A DNA stretch of 32,089 bases from an uncultured Bifidobacteriaceae bacterium (GCA_964413505.1 CAYPTV010000001.1:1-32089); one strand, 5' to 3'; positions 5,011-27,775 are shown, numbered from the stretch's first letter. Numbers and translations are program-made. Notes: a model not told the origin generated them from the sequence alone.

Positions 5011-5047
5011 AGCGCGGATATAAATCCGCGCTCCTTTTGATTTTTTA
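5011..5047 (+). terminator. Rho-independent terminator after the wzc-like gene
   Basis: Perfect 9-bp stem AGCGCGGAT (5011-5019) / ATCCGCGCT (5024-5032) with a 4-nt loop, followed by CCTTTTGATTTTTT. A second, weaker hairpin GGAAGACC..GGTCTTCC sits at 5102-5119. Confidence 0.7.
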
Positions 5048-5215
5048 CAGGCGGCGATGGCGGCTTGGGATGAAGTGAATAAATGACTGTCATTCGCAGG
5101 CGGAAGACCGGGGTCTTCCTTTCGGAATAATGGAACATGGCGATCAAAAGACCCGTAGATTCGCGGAATCAAAAAGCATCTGCGAATTGACCGGCACGAA
5201 GTGTCTTTAAAAAAA

Positions 5216-5318
5216 TCTGAAATGCTGAAATGAGAAATTGGGAAATAGGAAATGAAATTATTTTTGATTTGTTTTGATTCCGCTTTCATAATTTTAGGGT
5301 TTAAGCTTTTGATGATTT
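5216..5318 (+). repeat. Junction element A: GAAA-rich arm followed by a TTTC/TTTG-rich arm, ending at the wzm ATG
   Basis: tctgaaatgctgaaatgagaaattgggaaataggaaatgaaatt | atttttgatttgttttgattccgctttcat...aagcttttgatgatttATG. It shares the modules GAAATGAAaTT, TTCCGCTTT and AGCTTTTGAT with the elements at 19355, 22566 and 27652. Confidence 0.6.
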
Positions 5319-6206: not shown

Positions 6207-6224
6207 CGCCGAAGGCGCGACGAC

Positions 6225-6291
6225 GGACTACGAGACCGCAAGACAACAGACCATGCGGATACGAGACCACTGACCACAGGACAACAAGACC
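6225..6291 (+). repeat. Left flank of the four-helix-bundle cassette (T-poor ACG-rich tract with internal direct repeats)
   Basis: ggactacgagaccgcaagacaacagaccatgcggatacgagaccactgaccacaggacaacaagacc. ACGAGACC occurs twice (6230, 6261). GAGACCACTGAC (6263-6274) is the exact reverse complement of 6679-6690. Confidence 0.65.
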
Positions 6292-6678
6292 ATGAGAGAT
6301 TACACGAAGATTGAAGCGTGGAAACTGGCGGACGATTTGACGGTGGCCGTCTATGAACAAACACGGCTATTTCCAAGAGAGGAAATTTATGGGCTGACCA
6401 GCCAGTTGCGCCGCGCTTCGTATTCCGTGCCTGCAAATATTGTGGAAGGTTCCTCGCGCGAGAGCAAAAAGGACTACTTGCACTTCCTTTACATTTCGCG
6501 TGGCTCGTTATCGGAAACCCAGTATTTCATTCACTTGTCACGGCGGCTTGGCTATCTGTCTGTCGCGGATGCAGAGCGATTGATTGGACAGACCCGACAG
6601 ACGTTTGCGTGTTTGCACGGCTTGATTAAGGCAGTCGAAAAAGAGGCGGGGAAGTTTGGAAAGTCAGTAGTCCCGTAG
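6292..6678 (+). CDS. Four-helix-bundle protein (23S rRNA intervening-sequence protein / Avd-like family)
   Basis: YTKIEAWKLADDLTVAVYEQTRLFPREEIYGLTSQLRRASYSVPANIVEGSSRESKKDYLHFLYISRGSLSETQYFIHLSRRLGYL is the canonical motif set of this family. Confidence 0.88.
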   Translation: MRDYTKIEAWKLADDLTVAVYEQTRLFPREEIYGLTSQLRRASYSVPANIVEGSSRESKKDYLHFLYISRGSLSETQYFIHLSRRLGYLSVADAERLIGQTRQTFACLHGLIKAVEKEAGKFGKSVVP

Positions 6679-6690
6679 TCAGTGGTCTCA
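6661..6690 (+). repeat. Right flank of the four-helix-bundle cassette (inverted copy of the left flank)
   Basis: aagtcagtagtcccgtagtcagtggtctca. GTCAGTGGTCTC (6679-6690) pairs perfectly (12 bp) with 6263-6274. Pairing extends inward imperfectly for about 11 more positions and covers the stop codon. Confidence 0.65.
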
Positions 6691-6697
6691 TTTTCTT

Positions 6698-7969
6698 ATG
6701 TCTACCGTCATTTCCGTTGAAAATGTCTCCAAGGCCTACCGCCTGGGGCAGATTGGCGGTGGCACGCTCAAGGAAGACGTTGCCCGCTGGTGGGCGAAGC
6801 TGCGCGGCAGGCCGGACCCGTTCCTGAAGATCGGCGAGGAACATCATGCGCGCCACATGGGCGAGCAGTTCTGGGCGCTGGACAATGTCAGCTTCGAGGT
6901 CAAGCAGGGCGAGGTGCTGGGCATCATCGGACGCAACGGCGCGGGCAAGAGCACGCTGTTGAAAATTCTTTCACAAGTCACCACGCCGACGAGTGGACAG
7001 ATCAAGATCAAGGGACGCATTGCGTCCCTGCTGGAGGTGGGCACCGGGTTTAACCCGGAAATGACCGGGCGCGAAAACATTTTCCTCAACGGCGCCATCC
7101 TGGGCATGACCAAGGCCGAAATACGGAAAAATTTTGACGAAATCGTGGCGTTTTCCGGGGTTGAAGAATTCATAGATACTCCGGTGAAACGTTATTCCAG
7201 CGGCATGTATGTGCGGCTGGCGTTTGCGGTGGCCGCGCATTTGGAACCGGAGATTCTGATCGTGGACGAAGTGCTGGCGGTGGGTGATGCCGAGTTCCAA
7301 AAAAAATGCATTGGAAAAATGCAGGATGTAGCTGGGCATGGACGCACAATACTTTTTGTGAGCCACAACATTGGTGCCGTGCGCACCCTTTGCAGCACAG
7401 GCATATTGCTTAAGAATGGTAAGCTTGAAATATCAGGCCCCATCGATGACATAATTGGAGCTTATATGGACTCTGGAGTGCAGCAGGCTAACAGCCATAC
7501 AGTAATAATTCCAAAGCCACCGAAGCGCTGCACGGTGTGGATGGAATCCGTCTCCATACTCTGCAATGGCAACCGAAAATCGACACTGGAAATCGGTGAC
7601 AAATTGTGTCTTGAAGTTAAATTTAGATCGTATGATCCTATTCAAAGACCAATTATTGGTTATCTCATCCGTTCGTCTCGTGGAGAAGACTTGGTGAATG
7701 CCAACAATTATTTTCTTCCGTCGCCTGATTACCCAACACCAGTCACGGATGGCACAATCGTCTGCGACTTGGGAGATTTGCCTCTTATGTCTGGATCATA
7801 TTCAGTTTCATTTTGGTTGTGCCGCAATCCTCACGAGCAACATCATGTAGAGGATGTATTGCATTTTACCGTCGAAGAAAAAAATATTTGGGGCACTGAT
7901 GCGCTGCCAAATAAATCGTTAGGTGGTCTCTGGTGGCCTACACAATTCAGATTTTCAGCGAACGATTAA
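6698..7969 (+). CDS. wzt: Polysaccharide/O-antigen ABC exporter ATPase with a C-terminal carbohydrate-binding-type extension
   Basis: Walker A GRNGAGKST, signature YSSGMYVRLAFA, Walker B ILIVDEVLAVGD and H-loop FVSHN. A ~170-aa C-terminal extension follows (from about 7440), as in Wzt/TagH proteins that recognise the glycan terminus. Confidence 0.88.
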   Translation: MSTVISVENVSKAYRLGQIGGGTLKEDVARWWAKLRGRPDPFLKIGEEHHARHMGEQFWALDNVSFEVKQGEVLGIIGRNGAGKSTLLKILSQVTTPTSGQIKIKGRIASLLEVGTGFNPEMTGRENIFLNGAILGMTKAEIRKNFDEIVAFSGVEEFIDTPVKRYSSGMYVRLAFAVAAHLEPEILIVDEVLAVGDAEFQKKCIGKMQDVAGHGRTILFVSHNIGAVRTLCSTGILLKNGKLEISGPIDDIIGAYMDSGVQQANSHTVIIPKPPKRCTVWMESVSILCNGNRKSTLEIGDKLCLEVKFRSYDPIQRPIIGYLIRSSRGEDLVNANNYFLPSPDYPTPVTDGTIVCDLGDLPLMSGSYSVSFWLCRNPHEQHHVEDVLHFTVEEKNIWGTDALPNKSLGGLWWPTQFRFSAND

Positions 7970-11062: not shown

Positions 11063-12016
11063 GTGATTTCAGATACACTCATCCCGCCGGTTCCAGAGGA
11101 CGGAAAACTGCGCCAGTTCTGGTCAGTGATGATTCCGGCCTACAATCCAAACAGGGATTATCTGGAGCAGACATTAAGGAGTGTTCTTGTCCAGGATTCC
11201 GGTTCGGCGCAAATGCAGATCGAGGTGGTGGATGATTGTTCGCCCAAGGTGGACGTGGCGGCGATGGTGCGGGAAATCGCCGGGGATCGAATCAAAGTTT
11301 CGCAAACGTCCAAGAACCTTGGCCTGGCCGGTTGCTGGAACACCTGCATAGAGCGTTCTCGTGGCGAATGGGTGCATATCCTGCATCAGGATGATTATGT
11401 CTTGCCCGAATTTTATCAAACACTGGCAAAGACGGCAGGGCGTCATCCGGAGATTGGCCTGCTCGCGACGCGTTCATTTTTTATAGATCATGAAAATACA
11501 ATTCTAGGGGTCACGCCCCGGTTATGCGGAATGGAAAATGGCTCGCGTAAAGCAGACGATTTCTTTTACGGCACACCGATTCAATGTCCCGGGGTGGTTG
11601 TGAAACGATCTGTCTATCAAGCGCATGGAGGGTTCAGGTCGGATTTGATATTTACCCTGGACTGCGAAATGTGGGCGCGGGTTATCAGCAACGCGGGCGG
11701 ATTGGTTACATCAGCAGTGTTAGCCTGTTATCGTTCTTCGGATGGCAATGAAACCAGCCGATTAAAACGATATGGCAAAGATCTGCACGACTACGAACGG
11801 TTGAACCAGCTTTTTGCATCCCGCTACCCGAGTTTTTCAGCAAGGCGTGCTCGAGAACGGATGTGCGACATGGCGTTGGGGCAAGCGTTGCAATTTTCAT
11901 TGGCAGGTGACCACGCCTCCTCCAAGGCTAATTCAGCCTATTGGAGGCAAAATGCAACGGCCAAGTTGTGGTTTCGCCGGCTGACGCAAAAGCTGGAGCG
12001 AACTTTGTTCAAATAA
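11063..12016 (+). CDS. Glycosyltransferase family 2
   Basis: WSVMIPAYNPNRDYLEQTLRSVLVQ...QIEVVDDCS...ILHQDDY. The start is a GTG at 11063; ATG 11129 is the alternative. Confidence 0.8.
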   Translation: MISDTLIPPVPEDGKLRQFWSVMIPAYNPNRDYLEQTLRSVLVQDSGSAQMQIEVVDDCSPKVDVAAMVREIAGDRIKVSQTSKNLGLAGCWNTCIERSRGEWVHILHQDDYVLPEFYQTLAKTAGRHPEIGLLATRSFFIDHENTILGVTPRLCGMENGSRKADDFFYGTPIQCPGVVVKRSVYQAHGGFRSDLIFTLDCEMWARVISNAGGLVTSAVLACYRSSDGNETSRLKRYGKDLHDYERLNQLFASRYPSFSARRARERMCDMALGQALQFSLAGDHASSKANSAYWRQNATAKLWFRRLTQKLERTLFK

Positions 12017-12105
12017 TCATTCCGGATGACGCAGACGAAGCGGATAAATATCAAGAAAATCCGCGTTCATCAGTGAAATCTGTGGATTCAAAAGGGTATC
12101 GCCCG

Positions 12106-12437
12106 CAAAACACTTCGTAAAACTGTCAAAACGATTTGTGATTGGAGCATAACGATTCATGTCGCGGACAAATCCCTTCGTATTTGCCTCAAAACACTGT
12201 TATGCGCTGGCTAAAATCTTTTGTTCGGGAACAAAACACTGTTGTTATGTGCAAAACACTTTTGTATGGAGCCGGATACGATTTGTTTGCGGCAGAACAC
12301 TTTTACTTTGGGACAAAACACTGTTGTTCCGGCCCAAAATGAAAGTGTTTCAGTCAAAACACTGTTGTTCCGGTGTAAAACACATCGTCTTTGAAGCCAT
12401 TCAATTCATGTTTGCGCAAAAACTGGGATTATCTTGT
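12106..12437 (+). repeat. Degenerate tandem array of about 16 units of 20-21 bp (core CAAAACACTGTTGTT)
   Basis: Units start at 12106, 12127, 12148, 12169, 12190, 12211, 12232, 12252, 12273, 12293, 12314, 12335, 12355, 12376, 12397 and 12417. caaaacactgttgttccgg is identical at 12314-12332 and 12355-12373. Confidence 0.85.
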
Positions 12438-12550
12438 TCACAAACAATGCTGGTAGGGCGCGTCACTTGTATCTTGTATTTTATCTTCCTTGTTTGGCGA
12501 CAGCCAAACGGGAAGTTATGTGCATAATCTCACATCAGTGCCAAAAATGC

Positions 12551-12578
12551 TTGAAAATTTCCTCATTTTGTGTATTTT
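12551..12578 (+). promoter_or_regulatory. Candidate sigma70-like promoter for the giant gene
   Basis: TTGAAA (12551-12556), a 16-nt spacer, then TATTTT (12573-12578) with TG immediately upstream. If used, it excludes the GTG 12570 start and gives a very short leader to ATG 12594. This is a pattern match only. Confidence 0.25.
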
Positions 12579-12593
12579 ACAAGGCATAATTTC

Positions 12594-15500
12594 ATGCAAC
12601 AATTGACAAAGCCAAGGCTGTTTTGCTGCATAAAACGTTTTCTGACGGTTGCTGCGGTTATCCTCGCATTTCAAGCGGTGCTGACACGCGGTGGGCTTCC
12701 CAATCCTGTTGTGCCCATCACATGGAATGGTGCCGCAAGCGGTTTGCCCAACGGGAACTGGGATATTCTTAACACCGCAAACTGGGTCACCACCTCGGGA
12801 GGCGCGCCTTACGAATATCAGGACACGAGCGCGGTGACGTTCGATGATTCGCTGGCCGGCACCACCAATGTCATCCTGACTACGACGCTTTCACCCGGCA
12901 GCATCACGGTGAACAACACGCTTTCAAATTATGTGTTCAGCGGCTCGGGCAAAATCAGCGGGACAACCGGCTTGACAAAAACCGGCAGCGGCACATTGGT
13001 TGTGGACAACAGCGGCTCGAATGCTTTCAGCGGCAGTGTCACCATCAGTGCCGGGACAATCCAGATTGGCAACGGCGACGCCAGCGGAAACCTGCCGGGT
13101 GCGGTGATTGACAACGGTTCATTGATCTTCAACCGTGGCGATACCAGCCTCACCCATGCGGGCGTCATTTCTGGAACCGGCACGGTGTTCAATAACGGCA
13201 GTGGCACGGTGACTTTGAGCGTTGCCAACACCTTTACTGGCGGGCTCACCCTTAACAACGGCACGTTGATGGTCAACAGCACCGGCAATGGCAGCACTTC
13301 GTTGGGTGGCGTGGCCAACAACACCAGTTCAACCGCTGCCGCCAATGTGACCGTCAACGCCGGTGCCACCCTGGTGGGACTTGGTGCCGATGCATTTGGT
13401 TACTATCCGCATACAGCACCCGGAACCATCTTCATCAACGGTGGAACCGTTACGGACGTTGGAACCTCCAGTTATCGTATCACGCTGCCAAATCTGACCT
13501 TCACCGGCGGCACACTGGCCAGCGCCGCAGGGAATGCCGGCGACGCCAATGGGAATTACTCACTGTATGGCACCGGAGCGCCGTGCACCATAACCACCTT
13601 GAGCAACAACACAACGGCGGTCATCAGTGCTGGAATAATAACTTTGCAGCAGAACAATCAACCCACCGGAACGACCGCCTTCAATGTCGCTGCTGGCAAT
13701 GTCACCGGTGGAATGACTCCCGGAGTGGATTTACTCGTGTCTTCAGTCATTGCAAATTTCGGCGCTGAAGTGGGCAGCGTTCTAAAAACCGGTTCGGGCG
13801 TCATGGCTTTGGATTCAACCAACCTCTACACCGGCACGACGACTGTCAGCGGCGGGACGCTACAGTTGGGCACGACCAATGACACGGCTGTGTTGGCCGA
13901 GCCCGTGGGCACAGGAGCGGTAACCAACAATGCCATCCTGAATTTTGCCAGCGGCCAGGGGGTCGCCGTCCACAACATCATCAGCGGCACTGGCGCGGTG
14001 GTGGTGAGCAGCGGAACCAACATCCTTACGGCCACGAACACCTATGCTGGGAATACGATGGTGAAAGCGGGCATACTGTTGTTGACTGGCAGCAGCTCGA
14101 TAGCCAACAGTCCGACCATCACGTTAGCGAGTGGCGCAACATTTGATGTGTCCCAGCTGGCCAGTCCGTTCACCGTGGGCGCGGGCCAGACTTTGGGCGG
14201 CAGCGGAATCATTTCAGGGAACGTGATTGTCAATGGAAAGCTCCAGACCGGCGTGACCAATACAATTAACGGGAATCTCACTTACAATACCGGAACCGAG
14301 GCGGATTTTAATTTAAACACCAGCGCCACGGGCGGAGGCAATGATCAGACAGTCTTGAATGGCGCTGGCAGCATCCTGTCTTGCGGCGGAGCGAGCATCG
14401 GCATCAATTGCGGCGCAATCCTGGATCAGGCAAATGATTACACGCTCTTCAACCTGACCGGCGGCTCGGCCAGCATCGTGAGCAATTTCAATGTCATGCC
14501 AGTCTGGACTGGAACGACTCCGGCCAATGCCAGTTCCTATGGTATTGTGATCTTGCGAAACAAAGTCCTGCTTCACTTTAATTCCACTGGCACGACAAAT
14601 CTACCGGTGGTTACGAACCTTCCGGCCTCAAACATTGCTGCAACGACTGCGACTTTGAACGGCCAGGTGCTTTCGACGGGCGGCCAGTATCCGGCGGTCA
14701 ACATTTATTACGGCACAACCGATGGCGGGACAAATCCGGCGGCGTGGGCAACGAATGTTTCTTTGGGGTTGCAAACCGGATCCTTTGCCGCGGCGGCTTT
14801 CAACCTGACTACAAACACCACCTACTACTTCACCACTTCAGCCTCAAACTCGGCGGGCATGGCCTGGGCTACGCCTTCACAGTCATTCACCACGACGGTG
14901 GCGAGCGTGGCCGTGGCAACAAACCTGCCGGCTTCAAATGTGCAGGGCAGCTCGGCAATCCTGAACGGCCAGATTCTCTCCATCGGCAGTCAAGTCCCAA
15001 CAGTGACCTTGTATTATGGCCCGACCGATGGCGGAACCAATGCCTCAAACTGGGCGAACAATGTTTATCTCGGCCAGCAGGGCGGAAACTTTATCGTCAC
15101 AGTCACCGGCCTGTCCACCAACACGACTTATTATTATGCTGCAGCCGCCACAAACATCGCCGGCACGGCCTGGGCCAGCCCTTCAGCCAACTTCACCACA
15201 CTGCCGACGGCTCTCGTAGTTTCGGTGCTGACCTATCATTATGACAATGCGCGAACCGGGGCCAACACCAACGAGACATTGCTGACACCTTCGATTGTCA
15301 ACACGAACAGCTTCGGTCTATTGATCAAGTATGTGGTGGACGGGTTTGTTGTCGCTCAGCCATTGTATGTGCCAAGCGTGGCCATTCCCGGGCAAGGCAC
15401 TCATAACGTCGTGTTTGTGGCGACCGAGAATGCCAGTATTTATGCCTTTGACGCGGACGGCAACACGGCGGTAAATGGCGGATTATTATGGCACACCAAC

Positions 15501-18500
15501 CTGGGGATAGTGCCTTTACTCAGCAATGGTGAATTTGGCTATCGTTATGGAATCGGTAATGGCCTCAACATAGGTTATTATGAACAGGGCATCACCGACA
15601 CGCCTGTCATCGACCCTGTTTCTGGAACGATTTATGTGGATGTTCTTACGCGTGAAGTCACGACAACAACGAATTATTACCATCGTATCCACGCCTTGAG
15701 CATCACCAACGGCATGGAACAATCCTACAGCCCGGTGGTGGTCACTGCTTCGGTTCCTGGAACCGGCATGGACAGCTCGAACGGAGTGGTGACATTTAAT
15801 GCCAAGCAACAAAACCAACGCCCCGGACTGACGCTTGCCGGCGGAATTTTATACGTCGCCTATGGCAGTTTTAACGACACCGATCCGTTTCATGGCTGGG
15901 TCATGGGTTTCAACGCCACCAATCTCGTTCAATTGACCAACTGCATTTTCAACACCACGCCCAACGCGACGACAAATGTATTTGGCCCAAATGCCGGTGA
16001 AGGTGCGCTGTGGATGGGCGGTGATGGATTATGCGTGGACGCCAACAACAACCTCTTTTTTCAAACGGGCAATGGCAGCTTCAGCGCAAATACCAACGGC
16101 GGGGATTACGCTGACAGCATGATCAAGCTCTCCACGTCCAATTCACTGGCGGTGGCCGACTATTTCACCCCCTACAATCAGCTCACGCTGGCCAACTTCG
16201 ACATTGATCTTGGCTCGTGCGGCGCTGTCTTGTTGCCAGACTCGGTCGGGAGCACGAACCATCCGCATCTGATCGTGTCAACCGGCAAAAGCGGAACGAT
16301 TTATCTCGTGGACCGGGATAACATGGGACATTACCACGGCACTGATGGCATCAACGGAAATGACAGCCAGATTGTGCAATCCGTGATTGGTGCGACCGCA
16401 AGCACATGGAGTTCCCCCGCCTATTTCAACAACCAGATTTATCTGCAGCCCAGCAGCGCCGCAATGAAGGCATTCATTATCACCAATGGCGTCATTGTCC
16501 CATCGATCACCTCCGTGGCTGCGGCGGGCGTTGGCCTGGTTAACGGCGGGCCGATCATTTCCGCCAACGGCGCAAGCAATGGGATTGTCTGGGTGCTGAA
16601 TAACAACTCTGGTGGCGGCACGGAGACATTGTATGCCTGCACCGCCAACAATATCGCACAGCAGCTCTACAACAGCAGCCAGCTTTCGCGGGACAATCCA
16701 GGCTTCGGGATAAAGATGACCACACCCATGGTGGCCAACGGGAAGGTGTATGTCGGGGCGCAGTATGCGTTGTCGGTGTATGGATTGACGACATTTGTGG
16801 CGACGCCCACCATCTCGCCCAACGGCATCGCATTCACCAATTCAGTGACGGTGACATTGAGCGACGCGACGGCGGGCACGGCGATCTATTACACCCTGAA
16901 CGGCACTATCCCGACGACGAATTCGCTGCTATACACAGGGCCCTTTGCCATCACCACCACGTTGAACTTGCAGGCCATCGCGGTAAAATCCGGTGCGGTG
17001 AACAGCGGGGTGGCGTCTGCCTCTTTTGTCAACACGGCCGCCTTGGGCAGCGGCATCGGATTGCTGGGCCAATACTGGACGAACACGAGTGCGCTGGCGT
17101 TCACGAATATTTCATTCAACACTGCGGCGACATTGACGCGGACGGACGCGGTGGTGAACTACAATTGGAGCACGAACGGGCCTGATCCCAGCATTGGGCA
17201 GACGAACTTCATCGCCAGCTGGACCGGGTCGGTGCAGCCGCAATACAGCGAGACCTACACCTTCACCACCGTTGCGGATGACGGGGTGCGTCTGTGGGTC
17301 AACGGGCAGTTGTTGATTGACGACTGGAACACTCATTCATCTACGACGACCAACAGCGGGAGCATCTCGCTCAATGCGCAGGAGCTTTACAACATCCAGA
17401 TGGATTATTTCCAGGGCGGCAGCAACGCCGTGGCACAACTGATGTGGAGCAGTCTCTCCGCGGCACAAAACATCATTCCGCAGACACAACTTTATCCCTA
17501 CACGAACTCGCCGCCGGCGGTCGTGCTTTCAAGCCCGGCGAACAACTCAAGTTACACCGCGACGGCGAGCGTGACGATCGGCGCGAATGCGGATGCGGCC
17601 TATAATCCAATCAGCGCGGTGAGTTTCTACGCCAACGGCGTTTTGCTGGGCACGGTGAGCAACAGCCCCTACGCACCGCTTTACGAACTGACGGCAACGG
17701 GGCTTGGCGCGGGCAGTTATGCGTTGACGGCGGTGGCCACGGACGGGAGCGGATTGTGCAGCACGTCGGCGTCGGTGAACATCACGGTCAACGCTGGGAG
17801 CGGAGCGCCCTACGGACTGACAAACACCGTTCCGGTCTCCGCGTTCCTGAACATGCCGACGACCTTCAACGGGGCATTGCCGGCATTGCTCTCAGGAACG
17901 GGAGCATTCAGCGACACCACCAACCGCATACCAGCTGGCGGATTGATTCCCTACCAGCCCAACACGCCGCTGTGGTCGGACGGCGCGGTCAAGAGCCGGT
18001 ATATGGTGGTGCCCAATCCCGCTCCGAGCGGGAGCGGGACGATCACGCCTGATCAGCAAATCGCCTTTGCACCGACCAACAACTGGACGTTCCCTGCGGG
18101 GACTGTGTTTGTGAAGAACTTCGACCTTGTGGTGGACCAGACCAGCACGAACACGCCCCTGCGCCGGCTGGAGACTCGTTTGCTGGTGCGGAACATCAAC
18201 GGAGCGGTGTATGGCGTGACCTACAAGTGGCGTCCGGACAACAGCGATGCCGATCTGCTCTCAAGCAGCCTGACGGAGAACATCTTGATCACCAATGCTA
18301 CAGGTGTGAGCACTCAGGCTTGGTATTACCCCAGCCCTGCGGACTGCCTGACCTGCCACACGCCCGTGGCCAATTATGTGCTGGGCGTCAACACACGGCA
18401 GTTGAACGGCAGCCTGACCTATCCCGCCACCGGTGTCACGGACAACCAGCTGAGGACATTGAACCATCTGGGCCTGTTCAACCCGGCGTTCGACGAATCA

Positions 18501-19334
18501 ACCATCACGAACTTTGAAAGCCTCTCGGCGCTGACCAATCTCACCGCATCACTGGAGGAACGGGCTCGCTCTTACCTTGATGCCAACTGCGCGCAGTGCC
18601 ATCAGCCCGGCGGATCGGGCATCACCTTCGACGCGCGCTACGACACGCCGCTCTCCCGGCAGAACATCACCAACTATCCGGCAGCATTCTCGCTGGGGGT
18701 GGACAGCGCCTGCATCATCAAGGCGGACGATGTCTGGCGTTCGGTGCTGCTGGCGCGCATCAACACCAATGCCGCGGCTATCAAGATGCCGCCGCTGGCG
18801 CGCAGCATCATTGACACCAACGCCGTGCAGGTGATTGCCGGCTGGATCAACAGCCTGTCGGGCATGCCCACCCTGGCACCGCCGGTCATCACGCCAAACG
18901 GCGGCAGCTACTACGCCTCGGTGGGTGTCACCCTCACGCCGCCCGACACCAATGCGGCCATCTACTACACGCTGGACGGCTCTCTGCCCACGACCGGTTC
19001 GCTGCAGTATTCGGGCGCGTTCAACCTGACGGGCAACGCGACCGTCACGGCCAGCGCGTTCGAGACTAACTTCAACAACAGCATCGGGGCCGGCGCGCAG
19101 TTCCTGGTGCAGCCGCTCAACTTCACGTCGCTGGGCTACAACACGGCCGGCGGCCAGTTCCAGATGGGCTTCGAGGGCGTCATGGGCGAAACCTATGTGC
19201 TCCAGGCCACCACCAATTTCACCGACTGGACCCCCATCAGCACCAACAACGCCACAACCAATTTCTTAAACCTCACAGACCCAGACTCCACCAACTTTCA
19301 GAACAGATTCTACAGGGTTCTGTTAATACAGTAA
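12594..19334 (+). CDS. Giant secreted multidomain surface protein (PATR beta-helix repeats, FN3-like x2, beta-propeller, PA14, Ig-like, dihaem-type module)
   Basis: A single uninterrupted ORF of 2254 aa from GTG 12570, or 2246 aa from ATG 12594. It has an N-terminal hydrophobic signal/anchor [22 protein letters not shown]. Domain evidence is listed in the sub-features below. Confidence 0.9.
   Translation: [2246 protein letters not shown]
12930..14580 (+). other. Domain: autotransporter-associated beta-strand (PATR) repeats / beta-helix region
   Basis: At least four PATR-type units: [109 protein letters not shown] and [35 protein letters not shown]. Confidence 0.75.
14598..15209 (+). repeat. 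Two tandem 102-aa (306-nt) FN3-like modules inside the giant gene
   Basis: TNLPASN starts at 14613 and again at 14919. Both copies share LNGQ(V/I)LS.G...P.V..YYG.TDGGTN...W.N.V.LG.Q.G.F......L..NTTYY......N.AG.AWA.PS..FTT at roughly 50 percent identity. Confidence 0.7.
15228..16790 (+). other. Domain: beta-propeller-like region (PQQ-like repeat type)
   Basis: [21 protein letters not shown]...AQPLYV...[19 protein letters not shown]...GTIYVDV...GILYVAYGS...[10 protein letters not shown]...[12 protein letters not shown]...[17 protein letters not shown] shows recurrent strand motifs typical of this propeller class. The assignment is from memory of the family and is not HMM-verified. Confidence 0.5.
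17050..17460 (+). other. Domain: PA14 (carbohydrate-binding/adhesin-type)
   Basis: GLLGQYWTN...[11 protein letters not shown]...[43 protein letters not shown]...[24 protein letters not shown] is the classic PA14 pattern. Confidence 0.8.
17805..18865 (+). other. Domain: two-CXXCH putative dihaem c-type cytochrome-like module
   Basis: CLTCH at 18345-18359 and CAQCH at 18588-18602. The context [18 protein letters not shown]...ETRLLVR...YKWR...[15 protein letters not shown]...IKMPPLAR resembles, from memory, the TIGR03806 / SO2930-type dihaem family. Confidence 0.5.
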
Positions 19335-19354
19335 TCAGGGGGAAGGCTGACATT

Positions 19355-19449
19355 CTGAAAATTGAAAATGACACAACAGAGGTCGGAAGTCAGAGGTCAG
19401 AGGTCCATTTCAGCTTTTTAGCTTTTCAAATTTTCAGTTTTTGATTTTT
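19355..19449 (+). repeat. Junction element B: 14-bp stem enclosing CAGAGGTC repeats, with a T-rich 3' side ending at the next ATG
   Basis: CTGAAAATTGAAAA (19355-19368) pairs with TTTTCAAATTTTCAG (19423-19437), leaving one bulged T. CAGAGGTC occurs at 19377, 19391 and 19398. ATTTCAGCTTTTT is at 19408. The element ends tttttgatttttATG. Confidence 0.65.
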
Positions 19450-20427
19450 ATGGAACTGTCCGTCATTATCTGCACGCATAATCCGCGAAAGGATTATCTG
19501 GAGCGCACGTTAAATGCATTGCGTGCGCAGACGCTGCCCAAGGAACAATGGGAGTTGCTGCTGATTGATAATGCCTCCAAAGAACCACTGGCCAAGAGTT
19601 GGGATTTGTCCTGGCATTCGCAAGCCCGACATATCCGGGAGGAACAACTTGGACTTACGCCCGCCCGCCTGCGTGGCATCAAGGAATCAAAAGGCGAACT
19701 GCTGTTATTTGTGGATGATGATAATATGTTGCAACCTGATTATCTTGCAGTTTTATTAAATTTAGCCGAAGAACATTCAAAGCTGGGTTGTTTTGGTGCC
19801 GGAATATTGGAGCCGGAATTTGAACAGGAACCGTCACCCGAATTGCGGCCATACACATTCAACCTGGCATTGCGCTCAATTGAGAAACCAGAGTGGTCCA
19901 ATTCCATGAACGAAGCAAGGAAGCCGTTGGGAGCGGGTTTGGCCGTCCGGCGGATGGTGGCTGAAAAATCCGCTGCCGTGGTGCAGAGTTGCCCCATTCG
20001 AATCCAATTGGATCGATGTGGTTCAACACTCAATTCAGGTGGAGACGATGAGTTTTCCTGGGCGGCCTGTGAGATGGGGCTTGGCAAAGGATTGTTTCCC
20101 GCCCTTAAGATCAAACATCTGATTGGTCAGAAACGCGTAGAAAAACAATATCTGTTATCCATTGTAAAAGGGAATGGATTTTCACTTGCAATGCTTGCTC
20201 ATCTTCATGGCCAGACAATTTATTTACCGCCCACATCTTCGACATTTGCCGACATACTATGCAGTTTGTTCCGCGCGAAGTTGTCTATGACCCTTTATCA
20301 CGCAAACGCATGGTGGCTAGGCCTGCATAAGCCGCCAATAGAAAAGGACTTTGAAGATGCGTGGCGATCTGGTGTTGACGAGGCCCGGAAAAAACTGGCG
20401 GAATTGAAACCTGCCAAAAATAATTAA
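19450..20427 (+). CDS. Glycosyltransferase family 2 (paralogue 1 of a tandem pair)
   Basis: MELSVIICTHNPRKDYLERTLNALRAQTLPKEQWELLLIDNAS...LLFVDDDN. ATG 19450 is preferred over the track's TTG 19441. Confidence 0.8.
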   Translation: MELSVIICTHNPRKDYLERTLNALRAQTLPKEQWELLLIDNASKEPLAKSWDLSWHSQARHIREEQLGLTPARLRGIKESKGELLLFVDDDNMLQPDYLAVLLNLAEEHSKLGCFGAGILEPEFEQEPSPELRPYTFNLALRSIEKPEWSNSMNEARKPLGAGLAVRRMVAEKSAAVVQSCPIRIQLDRCGSTLNSGGDDEFSWAACEMGLGKGLFPALKIKHLIGQKRVEKQYLLSIVKGNGFSLAMLAHLHGQTIYLPPTSSTFADILCSLFRAKLSMTLYHANAWWLGLHKPPIEKDFEDAWRSGVDEARKKLAELKPAKNN

Positions 20428-21342
20428 ATGGATCTTTCAGTCATCATTCGCACGCATAACCCACGCGTTGATTACCTGACGCGGACTTTGGACGCGCTCA
20501 AGACTCAAACGCTGCCCAAGGACCAATGGGAATTGTTGCTCATTGACAATGCCTCCAAGAATCTTTTGGCCGGAAAGTGGGATCTGTCCTGGCATCCCCA
20601 CGCCAGTCATGTTCGCGAGGAACAACTTGGTTCCACATATGCCCAATTGCGGGGGATACGGGAATCGGCGTCGGACCTGATTGTTTTCGTAGACGATGAC
20701 AATGTGCTTTTTCCTGACTATCTGATGGAATGTATTCAGATCGCCAAAATGTGGACTGTTCTTGGGGCCTGGGGTGGTCAGCAGTTTCCGGAATTTGAAG
20801 ACGGCGAACCAATTGAAACCTGGAAGCGAGAATTTTGGACCGGCACTTTAAGACGTGATGCTTGGTCGAACAATTATGACCGGGCCACCGTTCCGATTGG
20901 CGCAGGAGTCTGTATCCGCCGTCAGGTGGCATTAAAATATGCCGGACTGGCGGGCAGCGATCCGTTGCGGCAAAGATTAGGCAGGACGGGTGCCGGGATT
21001 TTGAACTGCGCTGAAGATTATGACATGGCATTCGTTGCCTGCGACCTGGGCCTGGGTGTGGGGCGTTTTGTCAGCCTGAAACTATATCATCTTATGCCAA
21101 AGAGTCGGACAAGTGATGAATACCTTCTAAAGCTTAGTGAAGGGTTTGGATATTCCCTGGTCATATTGGACGCCTTGCGCGGAACCAAAACCCACCAGCT
21201 TTCGCATATAGACCGGATTGTGAACTTCTACAAACGGCTTCGAATTCCACCAATGAGACGGCGGATGGATGCGGCCTACGAAGCTGGAAGGACGCGGGCG
21301 ATCAATGAATTGAACATGATTTCCAGTCCGACATCGAAATGA
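20428..21342 (+). CDS. Glycosyltransferase family 2 (paralogue 2 of a tandem pair)
   Basis: MDLSVIIRTHNPRVDYLTRTLDALKTQTLPKDQWELLLIDNAS...IVFVDDDN. It starts on the nucleotide after the previous TAA. Confidence 0.8.
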   Translation: MDLSVIIRTHNPRVDYLTRTLDALKTQTLPKDQWELLLIDNASKNLLAGKWDLSWHPHASHVREEQLGSTYAQLRGIRESASDLIVFVDDDNVLFPDYLMECIQIAKMWTVLGAWGGQQFPEFEDGEPIETWKREFWTGTLRRDAWSNNYDRATVPIGAGVCIRRQVALKYAGLAGSDPLRQRLGRTGAGILNCAEDYDMAFVACDLGLGVGRFVSLKLYHLMPKSRTSDEYLLKLSEGFGYSLVILDALRGTKTHQLSHIDRIVNFYKRLRIPPMRRRMDAAYEAGRTRAINELNMISSPTSK

Positions 21343-22565
21343 ATTATTACGAGGAACTATACAATGGATGCCCTCCGCCGACGGGGAACATGTTCGGCAG
21401 CAAAAGCGATGGCCAAGCCGAACGGCTGGCGGAAGCCCGGAAACTTACCGGAATGATGCAGTCTCAACGCCCGTTCTGTTTCCTGCGCATGGGTGATGTC
21501 GAACTGAAATTTCTTTTGACCTATCAGGACAATCAACTGGATCAACTGGATCGTTCGGAATATGGCGACGGCCCCCTGTCCGGCACGCAAGGGTGCGGGA
21601 ATCCCGGCCTGGGACCAAAATATGCCAAACGCCTTTGGAACGTTTATGAGCAGGCCGACTATGTGGATTTCCATGAAAGGAACTGGCCGAACGAGCATCT
21701 GGTCAAAAAGTTGAAGATGGTCAGGAACTCCGGCACGCACCGGAACCCGGACAAAAATACCTCCGTCATTTTCCTGACCTGGGTCGAGAAGGAATTCAAA
21801 GAATACTGCAAGGGCCGACGCGTTGGCATTGCCGGTGCGGAATCACGATTACTGGAGATTCTTTGCAAGTCACAGGAGTTCAAGGCGGCGGCGGCAGATT
21901 ATTGGCCGGAGGATGCCGGGATATTTTTCCACCAAGCCCGGAATGACGGGCGAAACCTCGACGTCAATCTGGATCTGGTAAAAGAGGACTTGCGAAAATT
22001 TGTCGCCGACAACCGTCTGGACACACTTTTCCTCTCGTTGGGCGGCGGCGCAAAAATCCTTGGCTTTGAACTGTCCCGCGAACTTGGAATCTGCTGCTTT
22101 GATTTCGGAGCCATGACTCGGGCGTTGACTTATAGCGGCTGCGACGGAAACCGCGTGGCGCGTTCTCCTCATTCTCCATTTCTCTTTCGCATCCCGTTCG
22201 CGACTTACATGGACGCGCTCGAGAAAGCCATGCCGAAACTGACTCCGGCGGAACTTTTGGCCAAGGCCCACGGCCAGATTATTCTGGAGGTGGTGAAAAA
22301 GGAAGTCGGGTGGACTTTTGCCTCATGGGAACATGACTTCAGCGGGGAAAATCGCGCCGCCTTCAAAAAGGCATATCAGATTTATTGCAAACGCTACCGG
22401 CATCTGTTCAAGGCCGGCCCGGAGGCGCAAAGGGAAAGGACAGGTTTTCTGCATTTCTGCGGAACGAATGGGCTGACGCTGGAAGGGCGCTTTTTTATGG
22501 CAATCTTCCGGGCCAAAGGGATTGCTAGACGGTGTCTCGTGCTTAAGCAGAAAGTAGAAATTTAG
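21339..22565 (+). CDS. Hypothetical protein, possibly a GT-D/DUF1792-like glycosyltransferase
   Basis: A 408-aa ORF whose start overlaps the upstream stop (ATGA). CFLRMGDVELKFLL resembles the RFGDGE motif, and LSLGGGAKILGFELSRELGICCFDFGAM resembles the nucleotide-binding strand-loop of DUF1792 enzymes. The similarity is weak and recalled from memory. Confidence 0.35.
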   Translation: MNYYEELYNGCPPPTGNMFGSKSDGQAERLAEARKLTGMMQSQRPFCFLRMGDVELKFLLTYQDNQLDQLDRSEYGDGPLSGTQGCGNPGLGPKYAKRLWNVYEQADYVDFHERNWPNEHLVKKLKMVRNSGTHRNPDKNTSVIFLTWVEKEFKEYCKGRRVGIAGAESRLLEILCKSQEFKAAAADYWPEDAGIFFHQARNDGRNLDVNLDLVKEDLRKFVADNRLDTLFLSLGGGAKILGFELSRELGICCFDFGAMTRALTYSGCDGNRVARSPHSPFLFRIPFATYMDALEKAMPKLTPAELLAKAHGQIILEVVKKEVGWTFASWEHDFSGENRAAFKKAYQIYCKRYRHLFKAGPEAQRERTGFLHFCGTNGLTLEGRFFMAIFRAKGIARRCLVLKQKVEI

Positions 22566-22665
22566 GCGAAAAATTAGAAGTTGAGAAAGTAGAAATGAAT
22601 TTCAGCTTTCAGTTTTCCAAATTTCCGCTTTTTACTTTGGTTTGCCTTCTAGTTTTGGTTTGTTT
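22566..22665 (+). repeat. Junction element C: imperfect purine-arm/pyrimidine-arm palindrome ending at the next ATG
   Basis: gcgaaaaattagaagttgagaaagtagaaatgaa | tttcagctttcagttttccaaatttccgcttttt...ggtttgtttATG. The arms are roughly reverse-complementary. It shares the GAAATGAATTT, TTTCAGCTTT, TTTTCCAAATTT and TTCCGCTTTTT modules with A, B and D. Confidence 0.6.
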
Positions 22666-23766
22666 ATGAACGCTGACAAGCACAACCCCCGATCAGATTC
22701 GACGCGGATCGCATCCCTCGATGGGTTTCGCGCCCTCTCCATCGTCATGGTTCTTTGGGATCATGCCCAGTTGACAAACCATTTTCCGAAACTGCCCTTT
22801 CCCTGGATCAACTATATTTTAGACGGTGAGATGGGGGTGAGGATTTTTTTTGTCATCAGCGGTTTTCTTATCACGACACTGCTGCTGCAGGAGGAGAAAA
22901 AATGCGGTTATATTTCCCTTCCATTGTTCTACAAGCGCAGGGCCTTGCGGATTTTGCCTGTCTATTGGGCTTACATTCTGACAGTTGTCCTTTACGCCGC
23001 GATCACCGGTCTGGTGATACCATTCTGGGATTATTTTGAGACCCTCACTTTCACCACCTCCTGGTTTATGCGGCACCAATGGATTTTGGGCCACAGCTGG
23101 TCTCTCAGCATTGAAGAAATATTTTACTTGGTCTGGCCGTTTGCCCTGACAAGGCTTGGCCCCAAAAAAAGGCTTTGGTTCGCATTTGCGGGTATTCTGC
23201 TGGGTCCGATATTACGGGCTTTGAATTATCAATATGGATGGCGTAGCGTGACACACACCGTTTGGGTAGTTCCGGATGTGATCATGTGGGGATGCCTCCT
23301 TGCGTTGCTCCACAATCAATTCTCCGTCAGGCTGGTTGCCATATTCAGGAGAAACGCATGGATTTATCATTCCTTGATTGTTTTGGTGTTTTCGGGGCTT
23401 GATTGGGCGTTTAATCACCGGGTGTTCGGCCTTATCACGGTTCCATTCGCAATTTCATTCCATTCTTTGGCAATCTGCTATTTGCTGTATTACTACTCAT
23501 TCATTTCGAAGGGGCTTGTGTTCAAAATGCTGAATAATACATGGGTTGTTGCTCTCGGCGGAATCTCTTACAGCCTGTATTTGTGGCAGGAGATATTTCT
23601 GTTCCCAAAAATCCAACATTTCTTCTTCTGGCAATCATTTCCCATAAACGTCCTGGGAGCCGTGGTCGCCGCCGCCGCTTCATATTATCTATTGGAAAAG
23701 CCACTGCTCAAGTTGCGTGTAAAATTGCGCCACCCGGCCTTGAAGAGCAAGGCAGCGCCTAATTAA
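22666..23766 (+). CDS. Acyltransferase family 3 (OafA/YrhL-like membrane O-acyltransferase)
   Basis: LDGFRALSIVMVLWDH...GVRIFFVISGFLIT...HSWSLSIEEIFYLVWP...GGISYSLYLWQ. ATG 22666 is preferred over TTG 22642. Confidence 0.85.
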   Translation: MNADKHNPRSDSTRIASLDGFRALSIVMVLWDHAQLTNHFPKLPFPWINYILDGEMGVRIFFVISGFLITTLLLQEEKKCGYISLPLFYKRRALRILPVYWAYILTVVLYAAITGLVIPFWDYFETLTFTTSWFMRHQWILGHSWSLSIEEIFYLVWPFALTRLGPKKRLWFAFAGILLGPILRALNYQYGWRSVTHTVWVVPDVIMWGCLLALLHNQFSVRLVAIFRRNAWIYHSLIVLVFSGLDWAFNHRVFGLITVPFAISFHSLAICYLLYYYSFISKGLVFKMLNNTWVVALGGISYSLYLWQEIFLFPKIQHFFFWQSFPINVLGAVVAAAASYYLLEKPLLKLRVKLRHPALKSKAAPN

Positions 23767-25359: not shown

Positions 25360-26394
25360 ATGACTAAAATTCAGCCACGATTTTTTGCGGGTTGTCTTAT
25401 AGGTTTCCTTTTTGCCGGCGCGGCCTATTGGATTCTTGTCTGGTCCAGTATTGGGCGACCCATACAAAGCCTTGAGCAGAACGCTCGTTTCGTGGAATCG
25501 CGTCCACTAATGATTTCGGATGCGCTTGGTTCCAGACTGTTCCTCGTGGGGGGATCGTCTGTCGGCTATGGAATTTCTGCCAGCACCATCCAGGAGAAGA
25601 CAGGGATCCCTACCTATAACTATTCATTCTGGGCACCTTTGGGGCCTGTCTTTATACTAGATCAGGTAAAAAAAGTGGCACGTCCGGGTGATGTAATCCT
25701 TTTGAGCTTGGAATATGAATTGTTCGACTGGGAGGGTGATACACCCTATTGGCTGGATGAGTCATATATTGTCTTCACCGCTTCACATGAGCCCGAATTC
25801 CTACGGAGTCGTCCATTTGGAGAGAAGGTTCAATTCATGCTCCGGCTCAAAGATCGTTCGCTGATGGATCTTTGGTTTCGGCCACCCCATGCTGCACCGG
25901 GAAAAACTAGCAAGCCATCCATGGAAAATTGGAATTCCAACGGAGATGAGATTGCCAACACAGCCGCCACCAAACCAACATCATCCGGCGTAATAACGCG
26001 CATCCATCTTCCGATAGGCTGCCTTGTCAGTGGGTTTTCATATTCGCCCAAAGGATTTCCAATCATCAAATCATTTGTTGATTGGGCTGCAACAAACCAC
26101 ATCACTGTCCTGGCCACATACCCAAACCTGGCCAGAAACCCCTCTTATACAAATGAGCCCGCCCAAGAGTCGTTTGGAAAGATCCGCACGTTCTACGAGT
26201 CTTTGGGAATTCCGCTTTTGGGGACGGCGGAAGAAGCCATGGTTCCTCCGGAAGGATGTTATAATACCCAATATCATCCAACTTATGAATATACTTTGCA
26301 AAGAACCCAACGGTTGCTCAAATATTTGAAACCCCAACTAAAGGGCGTGGTTGGTTTTTCCCCGGCCAAAGAAACTGGATTTTCCAACCGCTAA
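25360..26394 (+). CDS. Membrane-anchored hypothetical protein, probable partner of the MBOAT enzyme (DltD/AlgJ/SGNH-like?)
   Basis: It starts 3 nt after the MBOAT stop. It has an N-terminal TM segment (FFAGCLIGFLFAGAAYWILVW). LFLVGGSSVGYG resembles a block-I Ser motif. The functional call rests on synteny with AlgI-AlgJ and DltB-DltD pairs. Confidence 0.4.
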   Translation: MTKIQPRFFAGCLIGFLFAGAAYWILVWSSIGRPIQSLEQNARFVESRPLMISDALGSRLFLVGGSSVGYGISASTIQEKTGIPTYNYSFWAPLGPVFILDQVKKVARPGDVILLSLEYELFDWEGDTPYWLDESYIVFTASHEPEFLRSRPFGEKVQFMLRLKDRSLMDLWFRPPHAAPGKTSKPSMENWNSNGDEIANTAATKPTSSGVITRIHLPIGCLVSGFSYSPKGFPIIKSFVDWAATNHITVLATYPNLARNPSYTNEPAQESFGKIRTFYESLGIPLLGTAEEAMVPPEGCYNTQYHPTYEYTLQRTQRLLKYLKPQLKGVVGFSPAKETGFSNR

Positions 26395-26395
26395 T

Positions 26396-27775
26396 ATGAA
26401 AATCCTCCACCTTTCCACATGCGATAACTTTGGCGGCGCCGCGCGCGCGGCCTACCGGCAGCATCTGGCTTTGCGCGGCGCTGGGATTGATTCCCGGATG
26501 CTGGTCCGGCACAAGCACACGGACGATCCGCATGTCCGGGTTTTCACCGGCAATCACAATTTACCTTCACGCGTTGAACGCACTCTCCGGCGCGCGTGGA
26601 TTCATCGTTTAGAAAAACAGTCGCGCGCAAAAGGCATCGGAGGCTTGACCGATCCCCGGGCGGACCTGCTGCGGTTTGCCGTGCAGGAAATGGCGGATGC
26701 GGATATCATCAACATCCACAAGACCGAACACTTTGCCGACATTCCGGCATTGCTGGCATCTTTGACTGCTGACAAACCGGTGGTGATCACCCTGCACGAT
26801 TTAAGCCCCATCACCGGCGGCTGCGATTATCCCGGCGGTTGCGAACGGTTCACAAATGCGTGCGGTGCCTGTCCGATGTTGGATTCCAAGGAGGAAAATG
26901 ATTATTCCCGAAAAATTTTCAGGATGCGACAGGCGGCCTACGGCACGCGATTGCCGGAAAATTTTGCCTTCGTGGTGAACAGCCGATGGACATTGGACAA
27001 TATCAAGCGCAGCTGGCTGGCAAAGGGCGTGCGGGCCGAACTGGTCCATCTCGCCCTGGATCAAAATGTTTATCAACCGGGGAACCGGGCCGTTGCGCGC
27101 GAGGCCTTGGGAATCGGCGCGGATGAAGCCGTGATTTGCTTCGGCGCCCATGACATGGGTTACAAGCACAAGGGCGGCGCGCAACTGGCCGAAGCGCTTG
27201 CCGGATTAAAATCCAACGCTTCCATCCACCTGTTGACGATGGGTTCCGGGCGAATTTCAGCGCCCCCGCAATTCAAGCATACGCATTTCGGGCGAATTGA
27301 AAGTGATTCACTGCAAAGTCTAATTTATCGCGCCGCCGACGTATTTGTGATTCCCTCCTTGGAAGAGGCCTTCGGCCAGACCGCGCTTGAAGCTGTCGCC
27401 TGCGGCACGGTGGTTGCGGGTTTTGCCGTGGGCGGAATCGTGGACATCGTCCAGAATGACTTGAACGGACTGCTCGTCGTGCGCGGCGATTCAAACGCGC
27501 TGGGACATGCGATAATTCGGCTGCTGAAGGATGAGATTTTAAGAGTCCGCTGGCGTGAATCCTGCGAGATCTGGGTGAAAGAACGCTTTTCTTTTGACAG
27601 GAACGCAACCGCCTACCGCGCGCTTTATGAGTCGTTGCTGGCAACTTCAACAAAAGCTGAAAGTCAGACCAGAGGTCAGAAGCCGGGAAGCAAATCGGGG
27701 AGATGGAAAATGAATTTTTATTTCTGCTTTTTGTTTTCCATATTTCAGCTTTTGATTACTGCCTCTGACTGTTAG
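26396..27775 (+). CDS. Glycosyltransferase family 4, WcaC-like with a 4-Cys motif; the C-terminal tail is encoded by a repeat element
   Basis: MKILHLSTCDNFGGAARAAYRQH..., HDLSPITGGCDYPGGCERFTNACGACPML, and EEAFGQTALEAVACGTVVAGFAVGGIVDIVQNDLNGLLV. GT4-like sequence stops near YRALYESLL (about 27650). The last ~42 codons run through element D. Confidence 0.8.
   Translation: MKILHLSTCDNFGGAARAAYRQHLALRGAGIDSRMLVRHKHTDDPHVRVFTGNHNLPSRVERTLRRAWIHRLEKQSRAKGIGGLTDPRADLLRFAVQEMADADIINIHKTEHFADIPALLASLTADKPVVITLHDLSPITGGCDYPGGCERFTNACGACPMLDSKEENDYSRKIFRMRQAAYGTRLPENFAFVVNSRWTLDNIKRSWLAKGVRAELVHLALDQNVYQPGNRAVAREALGIGADEAVICFGAHDMGYKHKGGAQLAEALAGLKSNASIHLLTMGSGRISAPPQFKHTHFGRIESDSLQSLIYRAADVFVIPSLEEAFGQTALEAVACGTVVAGFAVGGIVDIVQNDLNGLLVVRGDSNALGHAIIRLLKDEILRVRWRESCEIWVKERFSFDRNATAYRALYESLLATSTKAESQTRGQKPGSKSGRWKMNFYFCFLFSIFQLLITASDC
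27652..27775 (+). repeat. Junction element D, overlapping the 3' end of the GT4 CDS
   Basis: AAAAGCTGAAA (27652-27662) is the perfect reverse complement of TTTCAGCTTTT (27743-27753). CAGAGGTC is at 27670 and its complement GCCTCTGAC at 27761. GGAAAATGAATTT, TTCTGCTTTTT and GTTTTCCATATTTCAGCTTTTGAT match modules in A, B and C. Confidence 0.65.

Follow-up and report, generated by a model that had tools for sequence, protein, structure and literature searches.

The locus and its genome

The window analysed here is a stretch of 32,089 nucleotides, contig C1 of a metagenome-assembled genome (768 contigs, 3.76 Mb, 55.5% GC, 74% complete). The closest named relatives of this genome are MAGs of the Limisphaerales (Verrucomicrobia subdivision 3) recovered from bogs, peat and sediments, and window DNA is also present in wetland metagenomes. 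Looking up exact protein matches yielded a single public sequence, an identical 58-kb contig. All large ORFs of the window lie on the + strand and together form a surface-glycan locus. It comprises a wzc-like gene (2845-5010), wzm (5319-6206), a PF05635 four-helix-bundle ORF (6292-6678), wzt (6698-7969), a giant gene (12570-19334), two GT2 genes (19450-21342, the first at 19450-20427), a GT-D-like gene (21339-22565), an acyltransferase gene (22666-23766) and GT4 genes, one of which is the ORF 26351-27775. Contigs C1, C23 and C256 may be pieces of one fragmented locus. After the wzc-like gene lies a classical GC-rich terminator hairpin with a T-tail (5011-5032, + strand), separate from the junction element described below. 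Rfam gave zero matches in the window at gathering thresholds, and at E ≤ 1 the sole match in 4990-5330 was a ciliate telomerase RNA (E 0.53), which is due to chance.

Two further features of the locus were recorded. Phased 21-bp repeats with a CAAAACACTGTTGTT core occupy 12106-12437, upstream of the giant gene. A contig from another wetland sample (X2) joins 11249 to 19651, taking GT2 gene 11063-12016 into GT2 gene 19450-20427 and omitting 8.4 kb that hold the 21-bp repeat array, the giant gene and element 19355. This joint, whose shorter side is only 30 nt, may be a strain variant.

Junction elements are built of degenerate heptamer arrays

The gap between the giant gene and the first GT2 gene holds an element (19355-19449) that a sequence-only reading had put forward as the best example of a family of junction elements. 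Every motif listed for it is present at its position. CAGAGGTC occurs at 19377, 19391 and 19398, and the T-run TTTTTGATTTTT runs up to the ATG at 19450, a GT2 start that matches the public gene call. TRF resolves the element into three degenerate arrays in a row on the + strand: TGAAAAT x2 (19356-19369), CAGAGGT x4.1 (19377-19405), which corresponds to the three CAGAGGTC repeats, and TTTCAGCT x4.4 (19408-19442). The A-arm contains GGCTGACATTCTGAAAATTGAAAATG words (19342-19376), and its stretch 19346-19359 is complementary to the CAGAGGT array. The T-arm (19407-19449) is a degenerate (TTTCAGC) x4 plus TTTTGATTTTT, contains about 9% G and stops at the GT2 ATG; R1, our model of this arm, matches 19404-19447 with 29.4 bits. 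Four of the modules originally listed, TTTCAGCTTT, TTCYGCTTTTT, TTTTCCAAATTT and MAGYTTTTGAT, proved to be phases of one degenerate (TTTCAGC)x4+TTTT array, namely the T-arm, and GAAA(A)TGAATTT closes the A-rich arm at its junction with the T-arm. What lies behind the modules is a set of degenerate heptamer arrays: GAAATGA/CTGAAAA-type words in the A-arm, (CAGAGGT)n, and the T-arm array. The CAGAGGT word array is also found in the copy at 27652, on C23 and in the relative G053. A search for orthologues of the giant-gene/GT2 junction found none, the best GT2 relative being 55% identical and in another context.

The modules recur, as had been proposed, at 5216-5318, 22566-22665 and 27652-27775, and the window copies are 95-124 nt long. 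TRF also reports GAAATGA x4 and TTTCAGC x2.6 in the window. Element A, the copy at 5216 (5205-5318, + strand), has an A-arm of GAAATGM words (5213-5255) followed by a degenerate T-arm (5256-5318); it ends at the wzm ATG (5319), and R1 matches it at 5271-5314 with 20.5 bits. The copy at 22566 occupies the entire gap from the GT-D-like stop (22565) to the acyltransferase ATG (22666), with an A-arm at 22566-22599, a T-arm at 22600-22640 and then a T/G-rich tail, and scores 32.7 bits with R1. The copy at 27652 (27652-27775, + strand) has an outer stem of AAAGCTGAAAG and CAGAGGTCAG words and an inner stem of GAAA/TTTC words. The elements are thus modular: 19355 is an A-arm, (CAGAGGT)n and a T-arm; 5216 an A-arm with a degenerate T-arm; 22566 a T-arm preceded by different A-words; and 27652 a complete hairpin whose outer stem contains CAGAGG words. 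A-arms start directly after stop codons. That all copies share one orientation is uninformative, since the window genes are all on the + strand, and dyads read A-arm then T-arm on either strand.

The GT4 ORF 26351-27775 crosses the whole hairpin at 27652 to its stop at 27773-27775, and its last ~40 residues and stop codon come from the element. The GT1 domain of this ORF ends near residue 403 of 474.

The copies belong to one dispersed family

The recurrence of the modules could be a chance likeness of AT-rich, low-complexity intergenic DNA with no family behind it. Three results point that way: whole-copy pairwise nhmmer comparisons are weak (E 0.08-3 genome-wide), a leave-one-out HMM search does not recover copy 5216, and the single word CAGAGGTC is no commoner in the genome than expected (24+17 occurrences vs ~68 expected per strand). 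Against this, leave-one-out HMMs run on the 3.76-Mb genome placed both copy 27652 (E 1e-6) and copy 22566 (E 0.01) at rank 1 and copy 19355 (E 0.09) at rank 3, in a genome with 971 AT-rich intergenic segments. In addition, 19342-19405 and 5213-5245 both align to a single composite element of a relative (L032 = G053). The alignment of 19342-19405 includes a run of 20/21 identical bases, GGAARGCTGACATTCTGAAA, then GAAATTGGGAAA and a CAGAGG array, common to the window copy and this element of another species. Copy 5216 is linked to the family by its A-arm, which aligns to the composite element.

More copies exist, both here and in relatives. R1, which models sequence only, has 16 sites in this genome. 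Matches also occur in 53 of 60 same-genus genomes (E ≤ 0.01 per genome; 0-57 copies each) and, mostly as single weak ones, in 17/40 other families of the order. In the T-arm alignments the word number is rather constant, at ~4 units, and word order is common to different species. The likeness among the copies thus exceeds chance. Judged by their sequences, the four are real relatives within one intergenic element family, and chance resemblance is scarcely credible as an account of them. The original description as a REP/MITE-like intergenic family holds in so far as the family is dispersed, genome-wide, genus-wide and patchily across the order; its membership of the REP or MITE classes does not (see below).

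Word-repeat dyads form a genome-wide class

Tandem arrays of period 6-8 abound in the intergenic DNA of the genome. For periods 5, 7, 8 and 10, none of them a multiple of three, array density is 5.4x higher between genes than within them (793 vs 147 per Mb), and 70 of the 210 array-bearing gaps hold at least two arrays. Neighbouring array pairs are reverse-complement in 112 cases vs 50 direct, with a gap mode of 10-50 nt. By a strict count there are at least 81 hairpin-type dyads built of tandem words, which cover a median of 75% of their gap and lie a median of 10-11 nt from the ORFs on either side. TRF overlap took the place of a demand for strict arm periodicity (≥0.7 self-match), which had yielded only 7 hairpins. 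Dyads favour co-directional gaps (39/1076 vs 13/683, p 0.04).

The word families include TCATCC..GGATGA, TCGTCC..GGACGA, AATGAAG..CTTCATT, CACCAAGA..TCTTGGTG and ATTTACG..CGTAAAT. Arm order is fixed within each word family (23:0, 13:1, 9:0, 4:0), and some members have flanks and loops in common. Polarity that is fixed per word family, together with common flanks and loops, suggests that the arrays spread by copying and did not arise through slippage independently. In the TTTCAGC dialect, 6/6 closely adjacent opposite-strand R1 pairs in relatives read A-arm then T-arm.

Two simpler definitions of the family were tried and rejected. Pairing of purine and pyrimidine tracts (17 of 20 threshold) missed 4/4 copies and showed no bias from purine to pyrimidine (30 vs 41). 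Composition alone gave no bias genome-wide either, the skew of AT-rich segments being 22 A->T vs 27 T->A.

Arrays also occur in other settings. The largest dyad families are the hexamers TCATCC..GGATGA and TCGTCC..GGACGA (for example C6:12701-12780 and C143:296-365), in which the pyrimidine arm always comes first; some copies have both flanks and loops in common, in either orientation, and the 3' arm would give poly-Asp/Glu codons. Heptamer arrays, (AGAAGTC)n among them, lie in frame within GT4 ORFs, between the N- and C-terminal domains (C23:8482-8515 and C23:11206-11237 in L029; L021:1501-1575 and 1984-2068), and seem to be translated as linkers. The 12/12 sense orientation of (AGAAGTC)n was discarded as a signal, since these arrays lie in ORFs and their complement has TGA in every frame. 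Genome-wide, 185 arrays of period 7 or 8 fall inside confident ORF calls, some of which may be over-extended. In co-directional gaps, arrays of 7-8 nt have neither a purine bias nor a stop bias. One region of ~1.2 kb without a confident gene (C2:24196-25404, L009/L030) consists of successive short arrays of TTTCAGC, CACAGAGA, CACAGATG, CCATCTGCCAACTC and other words.

Arms of the same build enclose the genes of small cassettes

The PF05635 ORF of the window lies in a cassette (6207-6697, + strand) whose arms are complementary 7-8-nt words, so that the design is that of a dyad with a gene inside. Each of the eight PF05635 genes of the genome (8/8) lies between complementary arms of heptamer words, and every cassette has a word of its own; the AATGAAG word is common to one cassette (C705) and 9-12 gene-less hairpins. 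By comparison, the loops of the four junction elements are 3-54 nt long with no ORF inside. The resemblance noted between GTCAG(A/T)GGTC and the right flank of the window cassette is real: GTCAGAGGTC resembles the cassette flank GTCAGTGGTC, and an array on C23 grades between the two words, from GTCAGAGGTC into GTCAGTGGTCC. The proposed link to the cassette system is supported by the common build of the arms in 8/8 cassettes and by a cassette at the junction of L035 that is equivalent to 5216. The genes of the cassettes (PF05635, HepT) are not known to be transposases.

In a relative, at L016 (G046:C2:330415-333456), a HepT-like ORF and an addiction-module antitoxin-like ORF flank a wzm-like gene, and the adjoining gaps are heptamer-word arrays. 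This arrangement resembles that of the window, where the four-helix-bundle cassette adjoins wzm.

One orthologous site holds different elements

Directly upstream of element A lies a conserved leader box of 77 nt (5128-5204, + strand), formed by a 10-bp hairpin and the invariant TGCGAATTGACCG..ACGAAGT. Its hairpin has four compensated pairs, and it has no Rfam match. It is found downstream of a wzc-like gene in 7 Limisphaerales genomes and occurs once per genome in 8/40 same-genus genomes searched. The box may be a cis-regulatory element of the glycan-export operon; it stands outside the repeat family and marks an orthologous position.

The interval between the box and the next start differs among genomes. 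It holds an A-arm then T-arm dyad in the window and L034, a ~290-nt composite with the window's modules in L032, and a solo T-arm in L037 and L038. In L035 it holds a four-helix-bundle cassette whose arms are GACTACG-type words like those of the window cassette, and in L033, L042, L044 and L047 an ordinary spacer. Such differing content behind a fixed leader box indicates turnover at one position. Since it lies downstream of the box, element 5216 is probably within a 5' leader. A promoter at 5216 was considered and rejected, two 9-of-12 hexamer matches being no better than shuffles.

Folding does not support a terminator

The 14-bp stem described for 19355 exists as complementarity, 19355-19368 with 19423-19437 giving 13 pairs and one bulge, but it is not the favoured fold. 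Its duplex energy is -10.2 kcal/mol and its ensemble pair probability ~0.02, and the MFE structure uses other pairs, between 19346-19359 and the CAGAGGT array (19391-19405). Compared with shuffles, the z-score of 19355 is -0.02, that of 5216 -1.3 and that of 22566 -0.9. A stable stem-loop in this 'best example' was thus not borne out, with a probability of ~2% and z of ~0. The only strong hairpin of the four is 27652 (-47.1 kcal/mol, z -4.2, 60-nt arms).

The elements had also been suggested to be terminators or attenuators. A Rho-independent terminator, a stem-loop and T-run just ahead of the next gene, would fit the 13-pair stem at 19355 followed by TTTTTGATTTTT. It would also fit the depletion of structured gaps in divergent regions: 19% of gaps in the genome fold far better than shuffles, but only 12% of divergent gaps vs 20-22% elsewhere. 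A terminator consensus scan, however, called none of the four copies (0/4) and did call the classical terminator at 5011-5032. The 19355 stem is A-U-rich, closes a 54-nt loop and is as improbable in the ensemble as stated above. Among the genome's strongly structured intergenic gaps of any kind, only 12% have a T-run after the main hairpin, and dyads are not enriched in convergent gaps (6/314). Finally, a metatranscriptome-library contig (27471-27825) crosses 27652 unchanged, although this is one contig of low depth and may reflect DNA carry-over. We therefore regard a terminator or attenuator role as very unlikely.

The elements might instead be functional RNA hairpins between cistrons, formed when A-arm and T-arm pair in the polycistronic mRNA. 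Such hairpins might be cut by RNase III, like the intervening-sequence stems of 23S rRNA, or act as 3' stabilisers that give the operon segments unequal stabilities. The 60-nt-arm hairpin at 27652 (z -4.2) would suit this role, as would the 19% of gaps that beat shuffles and their deficit in divergent gaps, the preference of dyads for co-directional gaps, the presence of an RNase III gene in the genome, and the identical arm design around PF05635 genes, which are named after RNase III-excised intervening sequences (PMC4990558). Three of the four window copies, however, are no stabler than shuffles, partnerless solo arms are common, and the RNA-library contig is intact across the strongest hairpin. 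On balance we think it unlikely that the elements act in this way.

T-arms, start codons and glycan loci

The copies had been said always to sit just ahead of a start codon. In the window the T-arms, with ~9% G, end at the next start codon or no more than ~22 nt from it, and T-arms abut starts in L017, L022, L034, L037 and L038 as well. Shine-Dalgarno sites are not used in this genome: SD-like motifs reach 7.2% vs 5.6% in a control window, and G drops to 16-20% before starts. The average leaders of the genome are A-rich, not T-rich. Immediately before a start, some solo arrays on C23 and C256 carry the A-words in sense. A T-rich leader as a general rule was rejected: strict TTTC-spaced regex arrays are rare (62), and, if they show any preference, the A-version stands in sense before starts in 12 cases vs 4.

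Seven of the nine significant T-arm matches in the genome have a GT1 or GT2 gene within 2.5 kb, vs a background of 4.9%, with the window copies themselves being circular evidence. C23 and C256 are likewise GT-rich. T-arm matches within 5 kb of GT1 genes number 9/22 in G053, 8/57 in G042 and 2/50 in G072, and the best loci of G044, G018, G051 and G046 adjoin GT4, deacetylase or wzm genes. The association with glycan loci is thus clear in G000, G053 and G042 and absent in G072. As matches within a locus are not independent, it is a tendency only.

This tendency could reflect a role at the DNA level, the elements serving as arrayed sites to which a regulator or a nucleoid protein binds, or as recombination patches of common sequence for swapping glycosyltransferase modules among loci and strains. 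The clustering of T-arm matches in GT-rich loci of this genome, G053 and G042 would be expected, and so would the genes beside the best matches in the four genomes just named. The gene blocks of the window are also bracketed, with a T-arm upstream and an A-arm downstream, and the near-constant number of ~4 words would suit a binding site. On the other side, no candidate binding protein was found, the association fails in G072 and is non-independent within loci, and the 7-nt period differs from the helical repeat. No recombinant junctions were seen; X2 contigs diverging at 22632 conflict and probably come from other copies or organisms. We consider a binding or recombination site improbable, to the same degree as the RNA hairpin.

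Comparison with known repeat systems

The closest parallels are the heptamer SSRs of Xanthomonas (GGGAATC) and Nostoc (GGGGAYT/STRR), which are tandem 7-nt repeats, mostly of ~4 or more copies and ~90% intergenic (Rehm et al. 2015, PMC4692102). In Xanthomonas, 70-75 sites consist of two convergent arrays able to form stem-loops (PMC4692102). The present elements resemble these SSRs in their head-to-tail units of 6-9 nt and in being dispersed, intergenic and near ORF ends (PMC4692102), and the convergent inverted pairs of Xanthomonas have a counterpart in the 81 hairpin-type dyads. They differ in that Xanthomonas and Nostoc each use a single G-rich, quadruplex-forming word per genome, whereas here there are many words (TCATCC, AATGAAG, CACCAAGA, ATTTACG, TTTCAGC and others). 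TTTCAGC, GAAATGA and CAGAGGT have no GGG runs, the G-tract/quadruplex feature being specific to the Xanthomonas and Nostoc words. Unlike those SSRs, the dyad layout is frequent here, polarity is fixed per word family, and the arms also enclose small genes.

TAACTGA direct repeats of Beggiatoaceae, cyanobacteria and Bacteroidetes precede start codons in genomes with few Shine-Dalgarno sites (MacGregor 2015, PMC4679880), and a role in translation has been proposed for them (PMC4679880). They are one word, nearly all direct (one indirect) and without a complementary arm (PMC4679880), whereas here arrays occur with their complement, and solo A-word arrays precede starts as well.

The 23S rRNA IVS of Coxiella bears an S23p ORF (PMC4990558). 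ORF-bearing IVSs and PF05635 cassettes, like the present elements, have complementary arms around an insert. Unlike an IVS, the junction elements have no ORF and lie between protein-coding genes and not in rRNA.

REP/REPIN sequences, which RAYT (Y1) transposases mobilise, are short palindromic repeats between genes, with proposed effects on mRNA stability or termination (PMC3733652). The junction elements are unlike them, having neither a conserved GTAG or CGTC head nor a fixed 20-40-bp palindrome (PMC3733652); the alignments show only (TTTCAGN)4. Membership of the REP class also fails on the Y1-transposase genes, which are flanked by different, GC-rich palindromes without word arrays. PF01797 (Y1_Tnp) has 4 matches in the genome; the Y1 genes at C9:10039-10731, C321:3223-3726 and C6:399-1217 with their GC-rich REP-like palindromes are a separate, conventional REP/RAYT-type system. 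Like MITEs, the elements are non-coding, dispersed and inverted-repeat-bearing, and they may be gene-less derivatives of a larger element. Unlike MITEs, they vary in content per copy and have repeats within their arms, and no transposase was found to partner them. Membership of the MITE class is contradicted by lengths from 55 to ~290 nt and by the lack of a consistent target duplication, the only flanking direct repeat among the window copies being AAAAG beside 27652.

Interpretation and significance

We favour, with moderate confidence, the view that the elements are word-repeat dyads in an AT-rich dialect of hairpin-forming heptamer repeats, copied, transcribed through, and tolerated or used as leaders, not terminators. 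Each would consist of an A-rich arm of GCTGAAA/GAAATGA words, to which a (CAGAGGT)n block is sometimes added, and after it the complementary T-rich arm, (TTTCAGC)x4+TTTT. The same genome-wide class of repeats would make the arms of the small-gene cassettes (four-helix-bundle, HepT). The elements would spread by copying, with polarity and word order inherited, and would then alter through slippage and decay. They may settle in, and fill, the gaps between genes, above all in one-directional glycan clusters, where they would be transcribed through. The G-poor, weakly structured T-arm at the next start could be tolerated as a leader, or serve as one, because the organism makes no use of Shine-Dalgarno sites. 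Weak pairing with the A-arm just past the upstream stop could couple the translation of both genes. We thus favour, by inference, tolerated or co-opted spacer-leaders, with weak coupling between A-arm and T-arm as a possibility. Against this view, no mobility mechanism, transposase or target duplication was found, and the elements are identical in two other wetland samples, contig-level evidence that copy number does not change rapidly at population scale.

A bolder reading is that the dyads are the gene-less, non-autonomous form of an undescribed insertion system that also places cassettes between genes. Such a system would target junctions and build the arms by templated repeat synthesis, which would account for the fixed polarity per word family. 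In Limisphaerales glycan loci its products would be a portable SD-free leader and a joint for swapping modules. We think this doubtful, if somewhat less so than the RNA-hairpin and DNA-site readings.

Whether as spacer-leaders or otherwise, the junction elements are a real family of a known, unexplained repeat kind, and neither a terminator nor, in the 'best example', a stable stem-loop. What is new is the modular AT-rich dialect across species, the fixed polarity of word families, the tendency towards glycan loci and the series of elements at an orthologous site behind the leader box. Intergenic heptamer repeats of bacteria have been reported for years, with no accepted account of their origin and function. 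Here one dialect recurs at surface-sugar gene junctions across a whole genus, and the same repeat design wraps small, mobile-looking genes. The elements also matter for annotation, since they account for over-extended ORFs, for low-complexity linkers and for odd C-terminal tails, of which the last ~40 residues of the GT4 protein are an example. The leader-box site, with a different element in almost every genome, is a natural series in which selfish insertions, SD-free leaders and RNA-processing sites can be set against one another.
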